Source of the DNA: an uncultured Ruminococcus sp.
GTDB lineage: Bacteria; Bacillota; Clostridia; CAKSNL01; HGM11501
Direction of reading: 5' to 3'
Length of the DNA stretch: 64,000 nucleotides
NCBI GenBank assembly: GCA_964466295.1
Contig: CAYXRC010000003.1
Span: 407-64,406 of the forward strand
Shown here: piece after piece, positions 406-54,795 of the stretch
Position numbering within the stretch: the first letter of the stretch is position 1
Layout of the letters: each line of letters opens with the position of its first letter
The notes under the pieces: generated by a model
Told to the model about the DNA's origin: nothing
Database searches by the model: none
What the model saw: the letters and a program-made list of their open reading frames with translations, nothing else
Program-made: the position numbers and the translations under genes

Positions 406-798
406 TGAGTGAATTTAAAGCTATTCCAGACATTTTGGACTTCCCCGCACTTCCCCGAAGCAGGGGGGACTTCCAAAGATGAAGTGAATTCATCTATTGC
501 TCCTTGACAACTGAATAGCACCTTTTTAATCGTAAGACTGTATGGGCGGTAAAAGTCGCCAGCACATTAGTTGATACGCCAAGACTGCTATTTTCTTGCA
601 CGAGCGAAGAATATCAGACTATAAACCGATTGATTGGCAAATCGGGATGCGATGAAACATACAGTTAGTAATTGATACTTGTGTACGCACCCGGCGGAGA
701 ACCCGGCGGAGCTGAAATGCTATGTACGCCGTGCCAACGGCTGTTAAAGAGGGGCGTTATAAAAATTAACTACCTATTTAATAGACGGAGGTGTTATT

Positions 799-2576: not shown

Positions 2577-2744
2577 GGATGTATTTCAACAGCCCGCAAA
2601 TTTTAAAGATTTACACCAAAATCAAGGGTTGCAGATTTTTGGAAACTTTTTTTGGAAACTGCTAAAAACTTTGATATTCAATTTTATTAAAAACCCAGTG
2701 TTTATGCGGGTTTGAGGTAGTCCGCACTTCCACTAACTTCACTT

Positions 2745-10093: not shown

Positions 10094-11374
10094 TTATACC
10101 GCCGCAAAGCCTTTCTCAAGATCGGCTATAATATCGTCAATATGCTCTGTTCCGATTGAAAGACGAATCGTTGCAGGCGTTATACCCTGATCTATGAGTT
10201 CGCTTTCCGAAAGCTGAGAATGAGTCGTGGTTGCCGGATGGATAACAAGGGACTTAACATCCGCAACATTGGCAAGAAGAGAGAATATTTCAAGGTTATC
10301 AATGAAGCGGTGAGCCTCCGCCTGTCCTCCTTTAATTTCAAAGGTAAATATAGACGCACCTCCGTTAGGGAAATATTTCTCATAAAGAGCATGATCCGGA
10401 TGATCCGGAAGTGAGGGATGATTTACCTTGGAAACCTTCGGGTGATTTACCAGATATTCGATAACCTTCTTAGTGTTTTCGGCATGACGTTCAAGCCTAA
10501 GCGAGAGCGTTTCTGTGCCCTGAAGAAGCAAAAATGCCGCAAAAGGAGAAATTGTCGCTCCCTCGTCCCTGAGAAGTATTGCCCGAATATATGTTACAAA
10601 TGCCGCCGAACCTACCGCATCAGCAAAGGATATTCCGTGATAGCTCGGATTAGGCGCCGCTATCGGAGCGTAATTTCCGCTTGCCTTCCAGTCAAATTTA
10701 CCGGAATCTACAATAATTCCGCCGAGAGTTGTTCCGTGTCCGCCTATGAATTTAGTTGCAGAATGTACGACTATATCTGCGCCGTGTTCTATGGGACGAA
10801 TAAGATACGGCGTTCCGAAGGTATTGTCCACAACTACGGGAAGTCCGTGTTTATGCGCTATTTCGGATATTGCGTCTATGTCGGGAATATCGCTGTTGGG
10901 ATTGCCCAGGGTTTCTAAATATACTGCCTTTGTGTTGTCCTTTATTGCTCCCTCAAGCTCGGAAAGATTGTGAGCGTCAACAAATGTGGTTTCTATTCCG
11001 AACTGCGAAAGAGTATGCCTTAAAAGATTATATGTACCGCCGTAAATGGTTTTCTGCGCCACTATGTGATCTCCTGCCTGCGCCAAGGCCTGGATTGTAT
11101 ATGTTATCGCCGCCGCTCCGGAGGCTACCGCAAGGGCTGCAATTCCGCCCTCCAAAGCCGCTATTCTCTTTTCAAAAACGTCCTGGGTGGAATTTGTAAG
11201 TCTGCCGTAAATATTGCCCGGATCCTTTAAGCCGAATCTGTCCGCTGCATGGGCGGAATTTTTAAAAACATACGAAGTTGTTGCATAAATGGGAACCGCT
11301 CTCGCATCCGTTGCGGGATCCGGCTGTTCCTGACCTACATGAAGCTGAAGTGTTTCAAATTTATAATTACTCAT
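10094..11374 (-). CDS. metY: O-acetylhomoserine (thiol)-lyase / OAH sulfhydrylase, PLP-dependent
   Basis: 426 aa. N-terminus FETLQLHVGQEQPDPATDARAVPIY and the PLP-lysine context HSATKFIGGHG are typical of MetY/MetZ-family Cys/Met-metabolism enzymes. Confidence 0.9.
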   Translation of the reverse strand: MSNYKFETLQLHVGQEQPDPATDARAVPIYATTSYVFKNSAHAADRFGLKDPGNIYGRLTNSTQDVFEKRIAALEGGIAALAVASGAAAITYTIQALAQAGDHIVAQKTIYGGTYNLLRHTLSQFGIETTFVDAHNLSELEGAIKDNTKAVYLETLGNPNSDIPDIDAISEIAHKHGLPVVVDNTFGTPYLIRPIEHGADIVVHSATKFIGGHGTTLGGIIVDSGKFDWKASGNYAPIAAPNPSYHGISFADAVGSAAFVTYIRAILLRDEGATISPFAAFLLLQGTETLSLRLERHAENTKKVIEYLVNHPKVSKVNHPSLPDHPDHALYEKYFPNGGASIFTFEIKGGQAEAHRFIDNLEIFSLLANVADVKSLVIHPATTTHSQLSESELIDQGITPATIRLSIGTEHIDDIIADLEKGFAAV

Positions 11375-11555
11375 TTTATTTACCTCTTTCTTAATTTTTT
11401 ATATAAGTTTTATATTTGTAATTAGCCCAAGCCGTCACATTCGGCCGTTCCTGAAATTTGCCCTTAAAAGAAGCTCAAAGTATTTAGTCATGAAAAACCT
11501 CCGTCTAAAATTATAACCGGAAAACTCCGACGGAATTTCCCGGTTAAAAGCAATG

Positions 11556-11578
11556 CTTAAAAAGGCGGCAACCGCCTT
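11556..11578 (-). terminator. Intrinsic terminator inside the metY leader (candidate attenuator)
   Basis: RNA AAGGCGG-UUG-CCGCCUU followed by UUU, starting 8 nt after the leader-ORF stop codon. Confidence 0.65.
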
Positions 11579-11586
11579 GGTTTGCT

Positions 11587-11685
11587 CTAATCTAAGGAAT
11601 ACATCGGGAAAAAGATACAGAAAAATTTCACCATGCATACACACATACACATTATCATATATCTACCGTTACACATGTTTTTCAT
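11587..11685 (-). CDS. 32-codon Met/Cys-rich leader ORF (MKNMCNGRYMIMCMCVCMVKFFCIFFPMYSLD)
   Basis: Hand translation. GGGAGG SD 8 nt before the ATG; 7 Met and 5 Cys in 32 codons. Sits between the promoter and the terminator upstream of metY. Below the ORF-track size cut-off. Confidence 0.5.
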   Translation of the reverse strand: MKNMCNGRYMIMCMCVCMVKFFCIFFPMYSLD

Positions 11686-11711
11686 AGTGTCTTCCTCCCG
11701 TTCTTTTATCA

Positions 11712-11761
11712 CCTACTTAGTAGGTTGGTATTATATTACCATACTTTACTTATCTTGTCAA
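11712..11761 (-). promoter_or_regulatory. metY promoter (TTGACA-17-TAATAT with TGn extension) plus CCTACT-T-AGTAGG palindrome at the predicted +1
   Basis: -35 at 11756-11761, -10 at 11733-11738, palindrome at 11712-11724. Confidence 0.65.
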
Positions 11762-11789
11762 TAGGTTTTTTTAATTTTTTTATAAAAAA

Positions 11790-11826
11790 ATAACCTCCGA
11801 AAAATCTTTGATTTTTCGGAGGTTAT
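11790..11826. terminator. Strong hairpin terminator ending the feo operon
   Basis: 16-bp stem ATAACCTCCGAAAAAT/ATTTTTCGGAGGTTAT with a 5-nt loop. The A7 on the + strand gives a U-run for the - strand transcript. Confidence 0.85.
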
Positions 11827-11838
11827 TTAAAAGGGATT

Positions 11839-12024
11839 TTATTTACTCTTTTTTGATTTTTCTTTGCACATTTCCTTCATGGCACAGCCTGTACAGCCGC
11901 AGCCGCACGAGGTCTTTCCTCTCCTTTCATTTCTTAAAAGAGAGCAGGCGGCCGCCGTCAGAAGAGCAAGCAGTAAAATGCTTAAAATGATTGTCGAAAA
12001 ATATTTTATTAACCAATCCGTAAT
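11839..12024 (-). CDS. FeoB-associated Cys-rich small membrane protein (start codon uncertain, possibly ATT)
   Basis: Hand translation: ...TDWLIKYFSTIILSILLLALLTAAACSLLRNERRGKTSCGCGCTGCAMKEMCKEKSKKSK, i.e. one TM span plus a CGCGCxGC tail. AAGGAGG lies just after the feoB stop. There is no in-frame ATG or GTG near the SD. Confidence 0.45.
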   Translation of the reverse strand: MTDWLIKYFSTIILSILLLALLTAAACSLLRNERRGKTSCGCGCTGCAMKEMCKEKSKKSK

Positions 12025-44406: not shown

Positions 44407-44448
44407 CAAAAAGGCGCACTTACCTCCCACTAAAGAAGTAAATGCGCC
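44407..44448 (-). terminator. Expression-platform terminator of the ZTP riboswitch
   Basis: RNA GGCGCAUUUAC...GUAAGUGCGCC followed by UUUUU. Its 5' arm overlaps the CUGGGCGC 3' end of the aptamer. Confidence 0.75.
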
Positions 44449-44525
44449 CAGACGGTCGGCTTTAAAACTCCCTAAAAGCTTCTTTGTGGTGCTCCACTTA
44501 TCCGTCAGTCACTTAAAGGGGCTTA
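44443..44525 (-). ncRNA. ZTP (pfl-motif) riboswitch
   Basis: RNA GUGACUGACGGAUAAGUGGAGCACCAC...(linker)...GCCGACCGUCUGGGCG carries the conserved GACUGACGG, GUGG/CCAC and CCGACCGUCUGGGCG elements of ZTP aptamers. Located upstream of purE. Confidence 0.8.
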
Positions 44526-54449: not shown

Positions 54450-54629
54450 AGAGTTTTCCCGCGCCCTTTGAGCAATTTCGGTATGCAAAAATAAGCCCTT
54501 TTAAAATAAGTGCGTTAAAAGAGCGTAGCCGAAAAATACCGCTTCTTTATATGCTCTTAAACATATATTTTGCAAAGCGGCAACAAAGCAGGTCTTTTGA
54601 CTTAACGCCTTATGAAAAAATTCGCACTT

Positions 54630-54775
54630 TTATAGTCCTGCCTTCTCAGTTTCCCAATGACTGACTTTCGTCAACGGACTAAAAAGCTTCGGCGTATACA
54701 GCGACTGGTATCGTCCCGGATTCTCACCGGATTCCCTTTTCACCGTGCGTGCCTTTTTATGCGGCATGCACGACA
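54630..54775 (-). ncRNA. Cobalamin (B12) riboswitch aptamer
   Basis: RNA GGUGAAAAGGGAAUCCGGUGAGAAUCCGGGACGAUACCAGUCGCUGUA ... AGUCAGUCAUUGGGAAACUGAGAAGGCAGGAC matches the conserved GGUG..AA.GGGAA...GGUG..AAUCC....C.G...C.GC..CUGUA and GGGAAGGC-type elements. Confidence 0.7.
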
Positions 54776-54795
54776 CTTTGTGCATCAATATGGAA

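Follow-up and report, generated by a model that had tools for sequence, protein, structure and literature searches.

A metY leader with two upstream ORFs and a candidate operator: a probable layered, ribosome-read control region for sulfur amino acids

Control of amino acid biosynthesis by leader-peptide attenuation is classically known from the trp, his, leu, thr, phe and ilv operons of Proteobacteria and Actinobacteria. The textbook regulators of methionine genes are SAM riboswitches, T-boxes and protein repressors, S-box or T-box control being the norm in Clostridia, and to our knowledge methionine is the only major biosynthetic pathway for which leader-peptide attenuation has not been described. 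The His leader of bacilli is also a leader-peptide attenuator (PMC2965389). In mycobacteria, ribosomes stalled on short poly-Cys ORFs unmask a ribosome-binding site (10.1101/834739). In the current study we analysed a 64-kb window (the whole stretch of DNA under study, 64,000 nucleotides) from an uncultured Ruminococcus sp., in which metY is preceded by a long leader. We propose, with a probability of roughly 0.6, that ribosomes read this leader, which would control metY in several layers in response to sulfur amino acids. A sequence-only reading of the same DNA had suggested a ribosome-mediated Met/Cys attenuator in place of an S-box or T-box. Our results support this idea, except that the terminator it named is the wrong one and that it overlooked a second upstream ORF (uORF2) and a palindromic operator candidate. 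As these two elements lie alongside the Met/Cys-rich leader ORF (uORF1), the leader is described here as a multi-layer control region and not as a single attenuator.

Promoter and leader of metY

The putative target gene of the leader, metY (10094..11374, minus strand), encodes O-acetylhomoserine sulfhydrylase (TIGR01326, 639 bits). Ahead of it on the same strand lies a sigma-70-type promoter (11733..11761), with TTGACA at 11761-11756, a 17-nt spacer, TAATAT at 11738-11733 and the TG of an extended -10 element. This promoter matches 10 of the 12 consensus positions and is the top site of the region in our promoter scan, which returned promoter-like sites at chance level overall (6 against 6.0 expected). 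The likely transcription start is near 11726, from where the leader runs for ~350 nt to the metY ATG at 11374. Both the near-consensus promoter and the length of the leader had been read correctly from the letters, as had the identity of MetY. Between the terminator described below (hairpin B) and metY, no promoter passed the scan criteria; by eye, this interval holds only AT-rich near-matches with spacers of 11-12 nt, and a second promoter there was rejected.

The whole window was searched against Rfam, and at the gathering threshold no match was obtained for the metY leader region. At E<=10, the interval 11300-11900 gave sub-threshold matches only, none of them to a SAM riboswitch or T-box. 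The strongest of these sit on the feoB-side terminator (11788-11828), and weak matches to His_leader and Phe_leader were dismissed because of this location. Rfam searches of 40 related metY loci found no riboswitch, no T-box and no leader family. The leader is therefore not matched by the covariance models of the SAM riboswitches (S-box, SAM-II to SAM-VI, S-MK) or the T-box, and the earlier impression that neither has a recognisable signature here holds in Rfam searches of the window and of the 40 related metY loci. Like S-box riboswitches and Met T-boxes, which form leaders ahead of metY, metNIQ and sulfur-assimilation genes in Firmicutes, the elements described below precede genes of this kind, and part of the uORF2 family appears to have a terminator/antiterminator switch as its output. 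Unlike them, these elements have no aptamer or T-box fold in Rfam searches, and the proposed sensor is the translating ribosome rather than a ligand- or tRNA-binding RNA.

uORF1, its hairpins and the related modules

Together with its Shine-Dalgarno sequence, uORF1 spans 11587..11699 (minus strand). GGGAGG at 11699-11694 is followed after 8 nt by the ATG at 11685, and the frame ends in TAG at 11589-11587. The translation (11685-11587) is MKNMCNGRYMIMCMCVCMVKFFCIFFPMYSLD*, with 7 Met and 5 Cys in 32 codons, and the candidate sensor run M-I-M-C-M-C-V-C-M occupies codons 10-18 (11658-11632); these features are as the sequence-only reading described them. The ORF list also holds a GTG-extended version of 41 aa. 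Chance is a poor explanation of the Met run, as only two segments with at least four Met per 10 residues occur in the six frames of the 64-kb window, and uORF1 is one of them.

The sequence-only reading had proposed looking for a Met/Cys-rich uORF plus terminator in relatives, and such an arrangement does recur. In eight other loci, a Met-rich ORF with 5-6 Met per 12 residues stands in the equivalent position with respect to a terminator and uORF2, although the uORF1 and uORF2 loci are phylogenetically non-independent and horizontal transfer of the metY cassette seems to occur (82-92% identity across phyla), so that all locus counts given here exceed the number of independent events. The nine loci share one layout, in which a Shine-Dalgarno sequence, the Met-rich ORF (MxMxM, enriched in Cys too), a strong hairpin with a U-run and uORF2 follow one another; the uORF1 stop lies 118-146 nt ahead of the uORF2 Met codon, and the modules precede both metY and metQ. 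All nine contain in-frame AUG-NNN-AUG repeats with a period of 6, a strong Shine-Dalgarno sequence 6-10 nt ahead of a start codon in frame with these repeats, and a frame that stays open exactly up to the 5' strand of the antiterminator described below. The Met/Cys run, the length of the ORF and its position are conserved, whereas the peptide sequence and its hydrophobicity vary (L069 and L161 are polar). A caution that the Met run might merely reflect a TG/TA-rich low-complexity stretch does not account for it, because in the relatives the intervening codons vary between in-frame ATGs that recur at every second codon.

The regularity of the repeats raises the question of whether they are read as RNA. 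TRAP binds triplet repeats with 2-3-nt spacers, and the similar AUG-NNN-AUG array, with its in-frame AUG at every second codon in 9/9 modules, might serve a TRAP-like methionine-sensing RNA-binding protein, translation being irrelevant. We regard this as highly unlikely, as the strong Shine-Dalgarno sequence with a start in frame with the repeats and the frame open exactly to the antiterminator are also present in 9/9 modules, Cys codons are enriched along with Met, and the loci show no link to a candidate binding protein. Nor is there much to recommend uORF1 as an independent small gene, encoding a hydrophobic membrane peptide or type I toxin, with metY transcribed separately. The uORF1 peptide is indeed hydrophobic (YMIMCMCVCMVKFFCIFFPMY), with a promoter ahead and hairpins behind, and folding predicts that pairing within the mRNA hides its Shine-Dalgarno sequence, a feature shared with many type I toxin mRNAs. 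This explanation is barely credible, however, given that neither the peptide sequence nor its hydrophobicity is conserved across the nine modules, that the module always stands ahead of uORF2 and a Met gene, that no promoter between the terminator and metY passed the scan, and that neither Pfam nor NCBIfam holds a family matched by the uORF peptides. A type I toxin or small membrane protein would be expected to be a conserved hydrophobic peptide independent of its neighbours, and uORF1 is not.

Two hairpins lie between uORF1 and uORF2. Hairpin A (AAGGCGG-UUG-CCGCCUU followed by UUU; 11556..11578, minus strand; stem -10.1 kcal/mol) is the terminator named in the sequence-only reading, and its sequence is present as read; the role of conserved terminator belongs, in our models, to hairpin B (UAACCGGGAAAUUCC-GUC-GGAGUUUUCCGGUUA; 11505..11546, minus strand; 15 pairs, -20.6 kcal/mol). 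The arms of hairpin B span 11546-11514. Its U-tract is interrupted in the window (UAAUUUUAG), and its equivalents have clean U-runs in 8/8 related modules. A predicted intrinsic terminator, as found in attenuators, is thus present between uORF1 and metY in the form of hairpin B.

No convincing antiterminator helix had been recognised by eye. One is nevertheless predicted, it has the classical geometry and it co-evolves across loci. Its 5' strand (11582..11611, minus strand) comprises UUUCCCG at 11611-11605, in uORF1 codons 25-27, and AGAGCAA at 11588-11582, overlapping the stop. Its 3' strand (11536..11553, minus strand) comprises UUGCUUU at 11553-11547 and CGGGAAA at 11542-11536, the latter within the 5' arm of the terminator, and the 3'-strand block UUGCUUUUAACCGGG is kept in L064, L140 and L196. 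For the window, the predicted stalled-state fold is a nested antiterminator of -21.2 kcal/mol. Over the nine modules, native antiterminator duplexes have a mean of -15.7 kcal/mol and mismatched ones a mean of -12.2 kcal/mol (permutation p=0.002); the window duplex taken alone is not significant against shuffles (p=0.10). The 5' strand begins 20-38 nt past the last Met of the run, its end falling between -5 and +9 nt of the stop. In 9/9 modules the predicted antiterminator and terminator exclude each other, and a ribosome at the stop would cover the antiterminator 5' strand, which one stalled in the sensor run would leave free.

Hairpin A is nested inside the predicted antiterminator, in its apical loop, and would therefore form in both states. 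That it is nonetheless the regulated terminator, 8 nt past the uORF1 stop, is improbable. Its GC-rich 7-bp stem, the U residues behind it and its position adjoining the stop codon are what one would look for in a terminator; it is not conserved, however, the related modules all having a terminator of the hairpin-B type, it has no competing alternative structure, and the terminator scan did not call it on the minus strand. Hairpin A may be a pause hairpin or a weak terminator, and with its five U residues it could cause constitutive termination. Small, non-homologous hairpins are also found in other loci, at the uORF1 stop or close to it.

From its sequence, uORF1 looks like a ribosome-read Met attenuator. 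It has the Shine-Dalgarno sequence and start of an attenuator leader ORF and the enrichment in regulating codons, which is kept in relatives. As in the classical attenuators, a short, apparently translated frame enriched in end-product codons stands ahead of an intrinsic terminator, and a ribosome terminating on this frame could cover the antiterminator's 5' strand. Unlike them, uORF1 would be specific for methionine and cysteine together, for which we found no described case, its sensor codons alternate (MxMxM) instead of standing in tandem, and it occurs in Clostridia, coupled in series to the unrelated uORF2. When Met and Cys are plentiful, the ribosome would reach the uORF1 stop and cover the antiterminator 5' strand (11611-11582); hairpin B (11546-11514) would then form and transcription would stop. 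When Met-tRNA or Cys-tRNA is scarce, the ribosome would stall in M-I-M-C-M-C-V-C-M, at least 37 nt upstream, and the 3' end of uORF1 would pair with the 5' flank and arm of hairpin B, allowing RNA polymerase to read through.

uORF2 and its family

The second ORF lies closer to metY, and it is far more common among the loci and better conserved than uORF1. With its Shine-Dalgarno sequence, uORF2 spans 11435..11502 (minus strand), GGAGG being at 11502-11498, ATG at 11491 and TGA at 11437-11435. Its 18 codons (11491-11435) encode the peptide MTKYFELLLRANFRNGRM*, with a CGA-AUG dicodon at 11443-11438. The peptide belongs to a family with the consensus F-x-x-L-[LVI]-R-x-N-F-R-x-G-R-M, which is present in at least 154 loci; the motif occurs in 37 of 80 metY loci. 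A metagenome scan was run with a degenerate DNA pattern, and 120/120 of the matches listed look like genuine uORF2 copies, a selection biased by the pattern used and counted from the matches listed. Carriers include genomes and MAGs of Faecalibacterium, Anaerotruncus, Oscillospiraceae, Lachnospiraceae and Treponema. The genes that follow uORF2 copies encode MetY, MetQ, MetN, cystine-type and sulfate-binding proteins and an MtaA-like methyltransferase, and some copies of uORF2 lie within operons, away from any promoter, between metI and metQ. One candidate sensor is thus spread over several loci of one pathway, as expected of a sensor ORF. In the literature searched we found no prior description of the uORF2 peptide motif, of Met leader or arrest peptides or of Met 'ribulons'. 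The family is large, apparently undescribed, and present in many gut and rumen anaerobes at loci that lack a SAM riboswitch or T-box.

Conservation of uORF2 is at the level of the protein. The N, R, G, R and M of the motif are invariant and their synonymous codons vary freely; at one Arg position CGC, CGT, AGG, CGA, AGA and CGG are all used. Since Arg is encoded now by CGN and now by AGR codons, with third positions varying freely, an RNA-only, riboswitch-like basis for the conservation was rejected. The CGAAUG of the window lies in a potential local hairpin (GCCG-AAUGUGA-CGGC), which was set aside as well because other loci inspected by eye do not have it. Met is codon 18 in 100 of 112 distinct copies, and a Shine-Dalgarno sequence precedes 103 of 113 copies (both among the matches listed). 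The codon before this Met is CGA in 34 of 37 cases, CGA accounting for 2.5% of Arg codons in the window and 5.6% in the loci. Of the CGA codons in uORF2 tails, 32 of 35 are followed by Cys or Met, compared to 4.6% in ordinary genes, and Cys makes up 13.8% of the tail residues. A sister family carries M-M-C-C codons in place of the NFRxG block, directly before an invariant CGA-AUG that is followed by the same antiterminator; the Met/Cys codons at the same spot suggest that starvation is sensed there.

The structures downstream of uORF2 differ with the length of the tail. In the long-tail class, 85.5% of cells in an antiterminator helix are paired, compared to 25-54% in slid controls; 6 of its 12 pairs are compensatory, and 0/500 shuffles reached the observed score. 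In the short-tail class, pairing of the Shine-Dalgarno sequence with the N-F-R-x-G codons gives -12.6 kcal/mol for native and -10.7 kcal/mol for mismatched combinations (p=2e-4). An intrinsic terminator follows uORF2 in 0/24 no-tail and 2/60 short-tail loci, and a general terminator output was rejected for these two classes; the uORF2 of the window has no tail and no terminator after it. Masking of the Shine-Dalgarno sequence by uORF2 is unsupported in the window, where the predicted pairing of uORF2 codons 6-9 (GCUUCUUUU, 11474-11466) with the metY Shine-Dalgarno region (AAGAAAGAGGU; 11382..11392, minus strand) is weak, at -9.7 kcal/mol against -9.3 kcal/mol for shuffled cores. Rho-dependent control was also considered; the stretches that follow uORF2 are rich in A and poor in G, and C is only modestly more frequent than G (0.23 against 0.16).

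From these conservation patterns, gene associations and covariation, we infer that uORF2 senses methionine through a single codon. While CGA occupies the P site and the tunnel contains the conserved nascent chain, decoding of the AUG at codon 18 would become limiting when charged tRNA-Met falls, and the ribosome would dwell at this codon; the Cys codons that follow the Met in many relatives would act in the same way. In long-tail relatives, the stall would preserve the antiterminator encoded by the tail, and in short-tail relatives it would keep the uORF2 codons off the Shine-Dalgarno sequence of the next gene. In both, the gene would be switched on under starvation. Family members with a clear predicted output include the Anaerotruncus colihominis DSM 17241 and Faecalibacterium loci.

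Several properties of uORF2 recall arrest peptides (TnaC, SpeFL, SecM, MifM, ErmCL). Residues near the peptidyl-transferase centre are conserved whatever the nucleotide sequence, synonymous codons being free, the short, fixed length fits the exit tunnel, and the ORF lies directly upstream of the gene that would be regulated. Unlike arrest peptides, uORF2 has no consistent stop or Pro end, and it would respond to how much charged tRNA is available and not to a ligand, force or drug. It shows no sequence similarity to any of them, and neither Pfam nor NCBIfam gave a match. The possibility that uORF2 encodes a metabolite-sensing peptide of the TnaC/SpeFL type nevertheless deserves consideration; the nascent chain and the ribosome would then jointly bind SAM, methionine, homocysteine or a precursor, and this ligand would set the stall. 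The ~10 residues conserved over the 14 positions nearest the peptidyl-transferase centre and the fixed length of 18 codons are hallmarks of ligand-dependent arrest peptides, and a tRNA-charging sensor in series (uORF1) would be more sensible if uORF2 sensed another signal. We find it rather unlikely on account of its direction, as a stall at CGA/AUG is predicted to switch the gene on in both output classes, which is the wrong way round for Met/SAM feedback on biosynthesis and uptake genes. In addition, the sister family has Met/Cys codons where the conserved peptide stood, and the uORF2 peptide is not always stop-terminated, unlike TnaC and SpeFL, which stall at termination.

The charged-tRNA reading of uORF2 also has to explain the peptide, since a plain hungry-codon model by itself leaves ~10 strongly conserved nascent-peptide residues unexplained. 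At somewhat less than even odds, uORF2 and its sister family may represent a new class of bacterial sensor, in which a 17-residue nascent peptide and CGA-AUG or CGA-UGY together form a single-codon gauge of tRNA charging, a 'methionine ribulon'. There is a parallel in yeast, where inhibitory CGA codon pairs leave A sites empty with the mRNA there in an undecodable conformation, and a higher tRNA concentration partly rescues elongation (10.1101/755652). By analogy, the CGA of uORF2 directly precedes a specific codon whose decoding would be impaired. The differences are that uORF2 is bacterial, that its partner codons are AUG and UGY and not CGA or CCG, and that the pair appears to be selected as a regulatory device, the P-site effect having been demonstrated in yeast only. 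A second parallel is the mycobacterial 'Cys ribulon' (10.1101/834739), which resembles uORF2 in that the sensor is spread over several sulfur-metabolism loci. Its ORFs are leaderless and carry Cys runs, whereas uORF2 has a Shine-Dalgarno sequence and an invariant Met codon 18 after a conserved peptide and CGA; moreover, some uORF2 members appear to drive a terminator/antiterminator switch, and the taxa differ.

If the new-class reading were true, the output of the sensor would be a terminator/antiterminator switch in some members and the unmasking of a Shine-Dalgarno sequence in others. The 'methionine ribulon' would then take the place of SAM riboswitches and T-boxes in Clostridia of the gut and rumen, and metY cassettes would have carried it into Treponema and further phyla. 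No earlier case would exist in bacteria in which the effect of a P-site CGA on A-site decoding serves regulation. More broadly, if the inferences made here hold, abundant gut and rumen anaerobes would sense sulfur amino acids via translating ribosomes, and a conserved nascent peptide with a rare preceding codon would be able to make a single sensor codon regulatory, which matters for understanding how decoding is tuned by codon pairs and nascent chains. Hundreds of short ORFs that are unannotated or labelled 'hypothetical protein' would gain a function, improving genome annotation and regulon reconstruction for the carrier organisms, and the uORF element could provide a compact Met/Cys-responsive part for the engineering of anaerobes.

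A palindromic operator candidate

A further layer of control may act on the promoter. The palindrome CCTAY-N7-RTAGG is present in 66 of 150 loci, at 1.30 per kb against a background of 0.023 per kb. This corresponds to a ~56-fold enrichment upstream of these genes, and the palindrome often lies over the -35 box. The candidate operator sequence is CCTATTGACAnnGTAGG. In the window, a degenerate member of the family (ACCTATTGACAAGATAAGT; 11748..11766, minus strand) overlaps the -35 box, with one mismatch in the right half, and probably provides operator half-sites. A probable repressor operator, with CCTAY-N-RTAGG palindromes at the -35 box and at +1, would add a transcriptional layer to the two ORFs.

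It could be argued that a transcription factor on this palindrome does essentially all of the regulation and that the uORFs are minor. The strong enrichment, the frequent overlap with the -35 box and several metY loci with the palindrome and no uORF are in favour of this argument. We nevertheless hold it to be very improbable, as uORF2 is conserved at the protein level even inside operons without a nearby promoter and co-varies with the structures downstream; the operator and uORF layers are, besides, mutually compatible. Within the layered control region that we prefer, a perfect palindrome, CCTAC-TAA-GTAGG (11712..11724, minus strand), lies at about +1 to +15 and would be either a second operator or a 5'-terminal hairpin of the RNA. 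Similar elements are found in L140, L190, L196 and L164.

The metY leader and its uORF1 module

On the evidence of sequence, from which all of its function is inferred, the leader of metY is a real feature and probably a form of ribosome-mediated attenuation. It lies on the minus strand, downstream of feoB, a FeoB-associated Cys-rich small ORF and a strong terminator (11828-11788), and begins with a sigma-70-type promoter, TTGACA-17 nt-TAATAT with an extended -10 TG (11761-11756 and 11738-11733), which at 10 of 12 matches is the top-scoring promoter-like site of the region. The Shine-Dalgarno sequence GGGAGG (11699-11694), 8 nt before the ATG at 11685, precedes the 32-codon uORF1, MKNMCNGRYMIMCMCVCMVKFFCIFFPMYSLD (11685-11587, TAG at 11589-11587), with 7 Met and 5 Cys; hairpin A, AAGGCGG-UUG-CCGCCUU followed by U residues (11578-11556), and metY itself (TIGR01326, 639 bits) lie downstream. 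The promoter, uORF1 with its Shine-Dalgarno sequence, and hairpin A read exactly as in the sequence-only reading. Such Met density is rare, as only two segments in six frames of the whole window hold at least 4 Met per 10 residues.

No riboswitch, T-box or leader family of Rfam was found in the window leader, at the gathering threshold or at E<=10, in agreement with the reported lack of an S-box or T-box signature; of 40 related metY loci scanned, none (0/40) carried a SAM riboswitch or T-box ahead of the gene. Elsewhere in the window, on the minus strand, Rfam detected a cobalamin riboswitch (54570-54795, 67.8 bits) and a ZMP/ZTP riboswitch (44439-44522, 57 bits); this genome thus employs riboswitches, but not to control metY. 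A pemK RNA motif is also present (669-725, plus strand, 43.7 bits).

A second hairpin, hairpin B, UAACCGGGAAAUUCC-GUC-GGAGUUUUCCGGUUA (11546-11514, minus strand, 15 bp, -20.6 kcal/mol), is much stronger than hairpin A and has UAAUUUUAG directly 3'. Upstream regions of related loci were compared, and among the 154 collected loci that bear the second leader ORF, uORF2, a Met-rich upstream ORF is present in nine: the window and eight others, namely L001, L064 and L069 ahead of metY, L140, L190 and L196 ahead of metQ, and L155 and L161. In all nine modules a Shine-Dalgarno sequence precedes an MxMxM run, frequently MCM and likewise enriched in Cys; the ORF continues for 16-23 codons (7 in L155) and is followed by a strong U-run hairpin and then by uORF2, whose Met codon lies 118-146 nt downstream of the uORF1 stop. 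The hairpins of the relatives are homologous to hairpin B and not to hairpin A, which had been taken for the terminator and appears instead at the tip of a predicted antiterminator.

The hairpin-B-type terminator is complementary, in its 5' flank and 5' arm, to the final 25-35 nt of uORF1, and the differences between loci are compensatory: GCUUUCUGUUA-AAG-AUAAGCGAUG with CAUUGCUUAU-AACCGAAAGUC in L064, GGUUCUC-CA-UUAAAAG with CUUUUAA-CC-GGGAAUC in L196, and UUUCCCG...AGAGCAA with UUGCUUU...CGGGAAA in the window. The mean duplex energy is -15.7 kcal/mol for native pairs against -12.2 kcal/mol for mismatched locus pairs (permutation p=0.002). In keeping with classical attenuator geometry, the antiterminator 5' strand starts 20-38 nt past the final Met of the run, and its end lies between -5 and +9 nt of the stop codon. 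When the window RNA is folded between a point 16 nt beyond codon 18 and the terminator loop, exactly this antiterminator is predicted, with hairpin A nested at its tip (-21.2 kcal/mol), and the UUUUUCCCG segment is alternatively predicted to pair with the Shine-Dalgarno region of uORF1 (-16.5 kcal/mol), resembling the 1:2 pairing of the trp leader. Taken alone, the window antiterminator is not significant (p=0.10); its support comes from the family and not from the window itself. The proposal of a Met/Cys attenuator is partly supported, by the module family and by the lack of a riboswitch; the conserved terminator, however, is hairpin B, and uORF2 had been missed. A further locus, L164, keeps a hairpin-B-type stem (AACCGAGAGACUUCAUCGGAGUCUUCCGGUU) and a 5' palindrome about 130 nt upstream of uORF2, with a uORF1 that has no Met run (MRSPFQEQPLVLPDFRLK...) and with the U-run gone; it looks like a decaying attenuator.

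uORF2, a conserved second leader ORF

The leader had been described with a single ORF; uORF1 is real, but uORF2, hairpin B and the palindromes considered below were absent from that description. uORF2, MTKYFELLLRANFRNGRM followed by a stop codon, occupies 11491-11435 (minus strand) and has its own GGAGG. Scanning species-representative genomes with the MetY protein gave 80 loci (L001-L080; MAGs and isolates), in which MetY is 81-92% identical across Clostridia, Treponema, Fibrobacter, Selenomonadaceae, Eggerthellaceae and Mycoplasmatota labels and is often accompanied by the same leader; this suggests that the metY cassette is mobile and has spread horizontally with its regulator, or that some contigs are mis-binned. 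One of these loci, in a Clostridia MAG from goat rumen (L005), also carries a Gut-1 RNA (RF01706, 58.5 bits; 2619-2694, plus strand) about 100 nt upstream of the metY/uORF2 promoter.

BLAST of the window leader against the 80 loci gave matches in two blocks, one around the promoter and the other at uORF2. uORF2 is kept as a peptide, the motif [LIV]-R-x-N-[FY]-R-x-G-R-M occurring in 37/80 metY loci. Within these 37 the Asn codon is AAT in 23 and AAC in 14, one Arg position uses CGC 14, CGT 13, AGG 4, CGA 3, AGA 2 and CGG 1 times, and Gly uses all four codons; this synonymous spread indicates selection at the protein level. The Arg codon directly before the Met is CGA in 34/37, CGA being the rarest Arg codon (2.5% in the window, 5.6% across loci).

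A degenerate DNA pattern of the uORF2 core matched at least 120 loci in metagenome contigs, and all the matches listed appear to be genuine: each has an ATG 8-10 codons ahead of the core and shares the N-terminal pattern. Among 112-113 distinct copies, a Shine-Dalgarno sequence is present in 103, the start codon is ATG in 106, and the Met is at codon 18 in 100 (range 17-21). The next gene is MetY in most of the matches listed; in at least 29 loci it is another, encoding a MetQ/NlpA-type lipoprotein, MetN, a cystine-type or sulfate substrate-binding protein, an MtaA/CmuA-like methyltransferase or a TcdA/ThiF-like protein. In several loci uORF2 lies inside an operon, 14-27 nt after metI and ahead of metQ. 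The methionine and sulfur genes downstream, together with these intra-operon sites, point to uORF2 as a locally acting leader of a methionine/sulfur regulon.

The Met is followed by a stop codon or by a tail. Tails are 13.8% Cys, with Cys present in 52/57 short tails, and 32/35 of their CGA codons have Cys or Met next, against 4.6% in ordinary genes. Some long tails end in a second or third CGA-ATG (L048, L055, L074, L093 and relatives), with endings such as ...VRMCTRM (Faecalibacterium loci) and ...LWGRM (a type common in the human gut).

Searches of Pfam and NCBIfam gave no family for uORF2 peptides, which occur in public databases only as unnamed or 'hypothetical protein' entries, one of them on at least 1000 contigs. 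Full-text literature searches found nothing relevant on the uORF2 motif, Met-codon leader peptides, Met-linked arrest peptides or Met 'ribulons'. A survey of 2010 stated that, until its own His example from bacilli, its authors were aware of no leader-peptide systems beyond the Proteobacteria and Actinobacteria (PMC2965389). uORF2 is an unusual, widespread second component and may merit a class of its own.

Proposed mechanism of uORF2

Two wirings are predicted. In the long-tail class (at least 10 codons after the Met; for example loci labelled Faecalibacterium, Dysosmobacter and Anaerotruncus), codons 3-6 past the Met (C-UCC-CGG-GCU) are predicted to pair with the 5' arm of a downstream U-run hairpin. 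In a 19-sequence alignment 85.5% of cells in this helix are paired, against 25-54% with slid partners, 6/12 pairs show compensatory changes, and its covariation score was reached by 0/500 shuffles. Translation through the tail would break this antiterminator, and a ribosome held at CGA/AUG would leave it mostly intact; where long tails end in CGA-ATG, sensor dicodons would flank its 5' strand on both sides. Loci with short or absent tails have essentially no terminators; there the uORF2 core is the main predicted partner of the next gene's Shine-Dalgarno region (AAUUUCCGUUUCGG with CGAAAGGAAAU), with complementarity over at least 14 nt in L172. Across 51 representatives, native pairs reach -12.6 kcal/mol against -10.7 kcal/mol for mismatched ones (p=2e-4). 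A ribosome stalled at codons 17/18 would cover the core codons and free the Shine-Dalgarno sequence. Since in both wirings a stall means on, and the genes serve biosynthesis or uptake, the stall would report starvation.

Whether the site senses charged tRNA or a bound metabolite is addressed by nine metY loci without the canonical uORF2 motif (L017, L018, L027, L049, L054, L056, L057, L066 and L078). Within about 330 nt upstream of metY these carry leader ORFs of a sister family, such as ...ATG-ATG-TGT-TGT-CGA-ATG-nnn-nnC-TCC-CGG-GCA... (for example MIRNFTLTQSTMMWCRMLNSRACPMAG), with an invariant CGA-AUG at codons 14-18 directly after a Met/Cys/Trp run, and they share the CUCCCGGGC:GCCCGGGAG antiterminator and terminator with the long-tail class. 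Ordinary Met/Cys/Trp sensor codons here replace NFRxG, and no other observation argues as strongly that the supply of Met/Cys-tRNA, and not a bound metabolite, is what the site senses.

CGA is probably read via an inosine-adenosine wobble pair. We propose that a P-site CGA and the conserved nascent chain jointly slow decoding of the next AUG (or UGY) and would make it strongly dependent on charged-tRNA concentration. The strong conservation of the peptide is more than a hungry codon alone explains. Mycobacterial poly-Cys short ORFs provide a precedent for the output logic (10.1101/834739). In the window, the pairing between uORF2 and the Shine-Dalgarno sequence of metY stays at the level of shuffled sequences, and the 60-nt spacer is rich in A and U and lacks structure; an action through Rho, RNase protection, or a vestigial role beside uORF1 are possible there.

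A probable palindromic operator and neighbouring features

The leader start also carries a perfect palindrome, CCTAC-TAA-GTAGG, at about +1 (11724-11712, minus strand); a degenerate copy spans the -35 box (11766-11748, minus strand). The 17-bp form CCTAY-N7-RTAGG is present in 66/150 upstream regions, typically as CCTATTGACAnnGTAGG across the -35 box; its density there is 1.30 per kb, about 56-fold that of the rest of the loci (0.023 per kb). It usually overlaps the -35 TTGACA of metY, metN and MtaA-like gene promoters (for example in L146, L100, L099 and L117), and several metY loci that lack uORFs show no recognisable element besides it. CCTAY-N7-RTAGG is probably the operator of a methionine/sulfur transcription factor, and its reader is likely to be a dimer.

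Promoter-like sites in the metY-leader region are at chance level in number. One on the plus strand, TTATCA-17 nt-TATTAT with a TG (11706-11734), overlaps the leader start and faces the bidirectional terminator (11788-11828), and could yield a divergent transcript of about 95 nt. The ORF after feoB (11839-12024, minus strand) matches the FeoB-associated Cys-rich membrane protein family (PF12669, 35.2 bits) and is missing from the automatic ORF list; no ATG, GTG or TTG start follows its AAGGAGGGG ribosome-binding site, and the only plausible start would be ATT at 12024-12022 or some coupling to the feoB stop codon (12040-12038).
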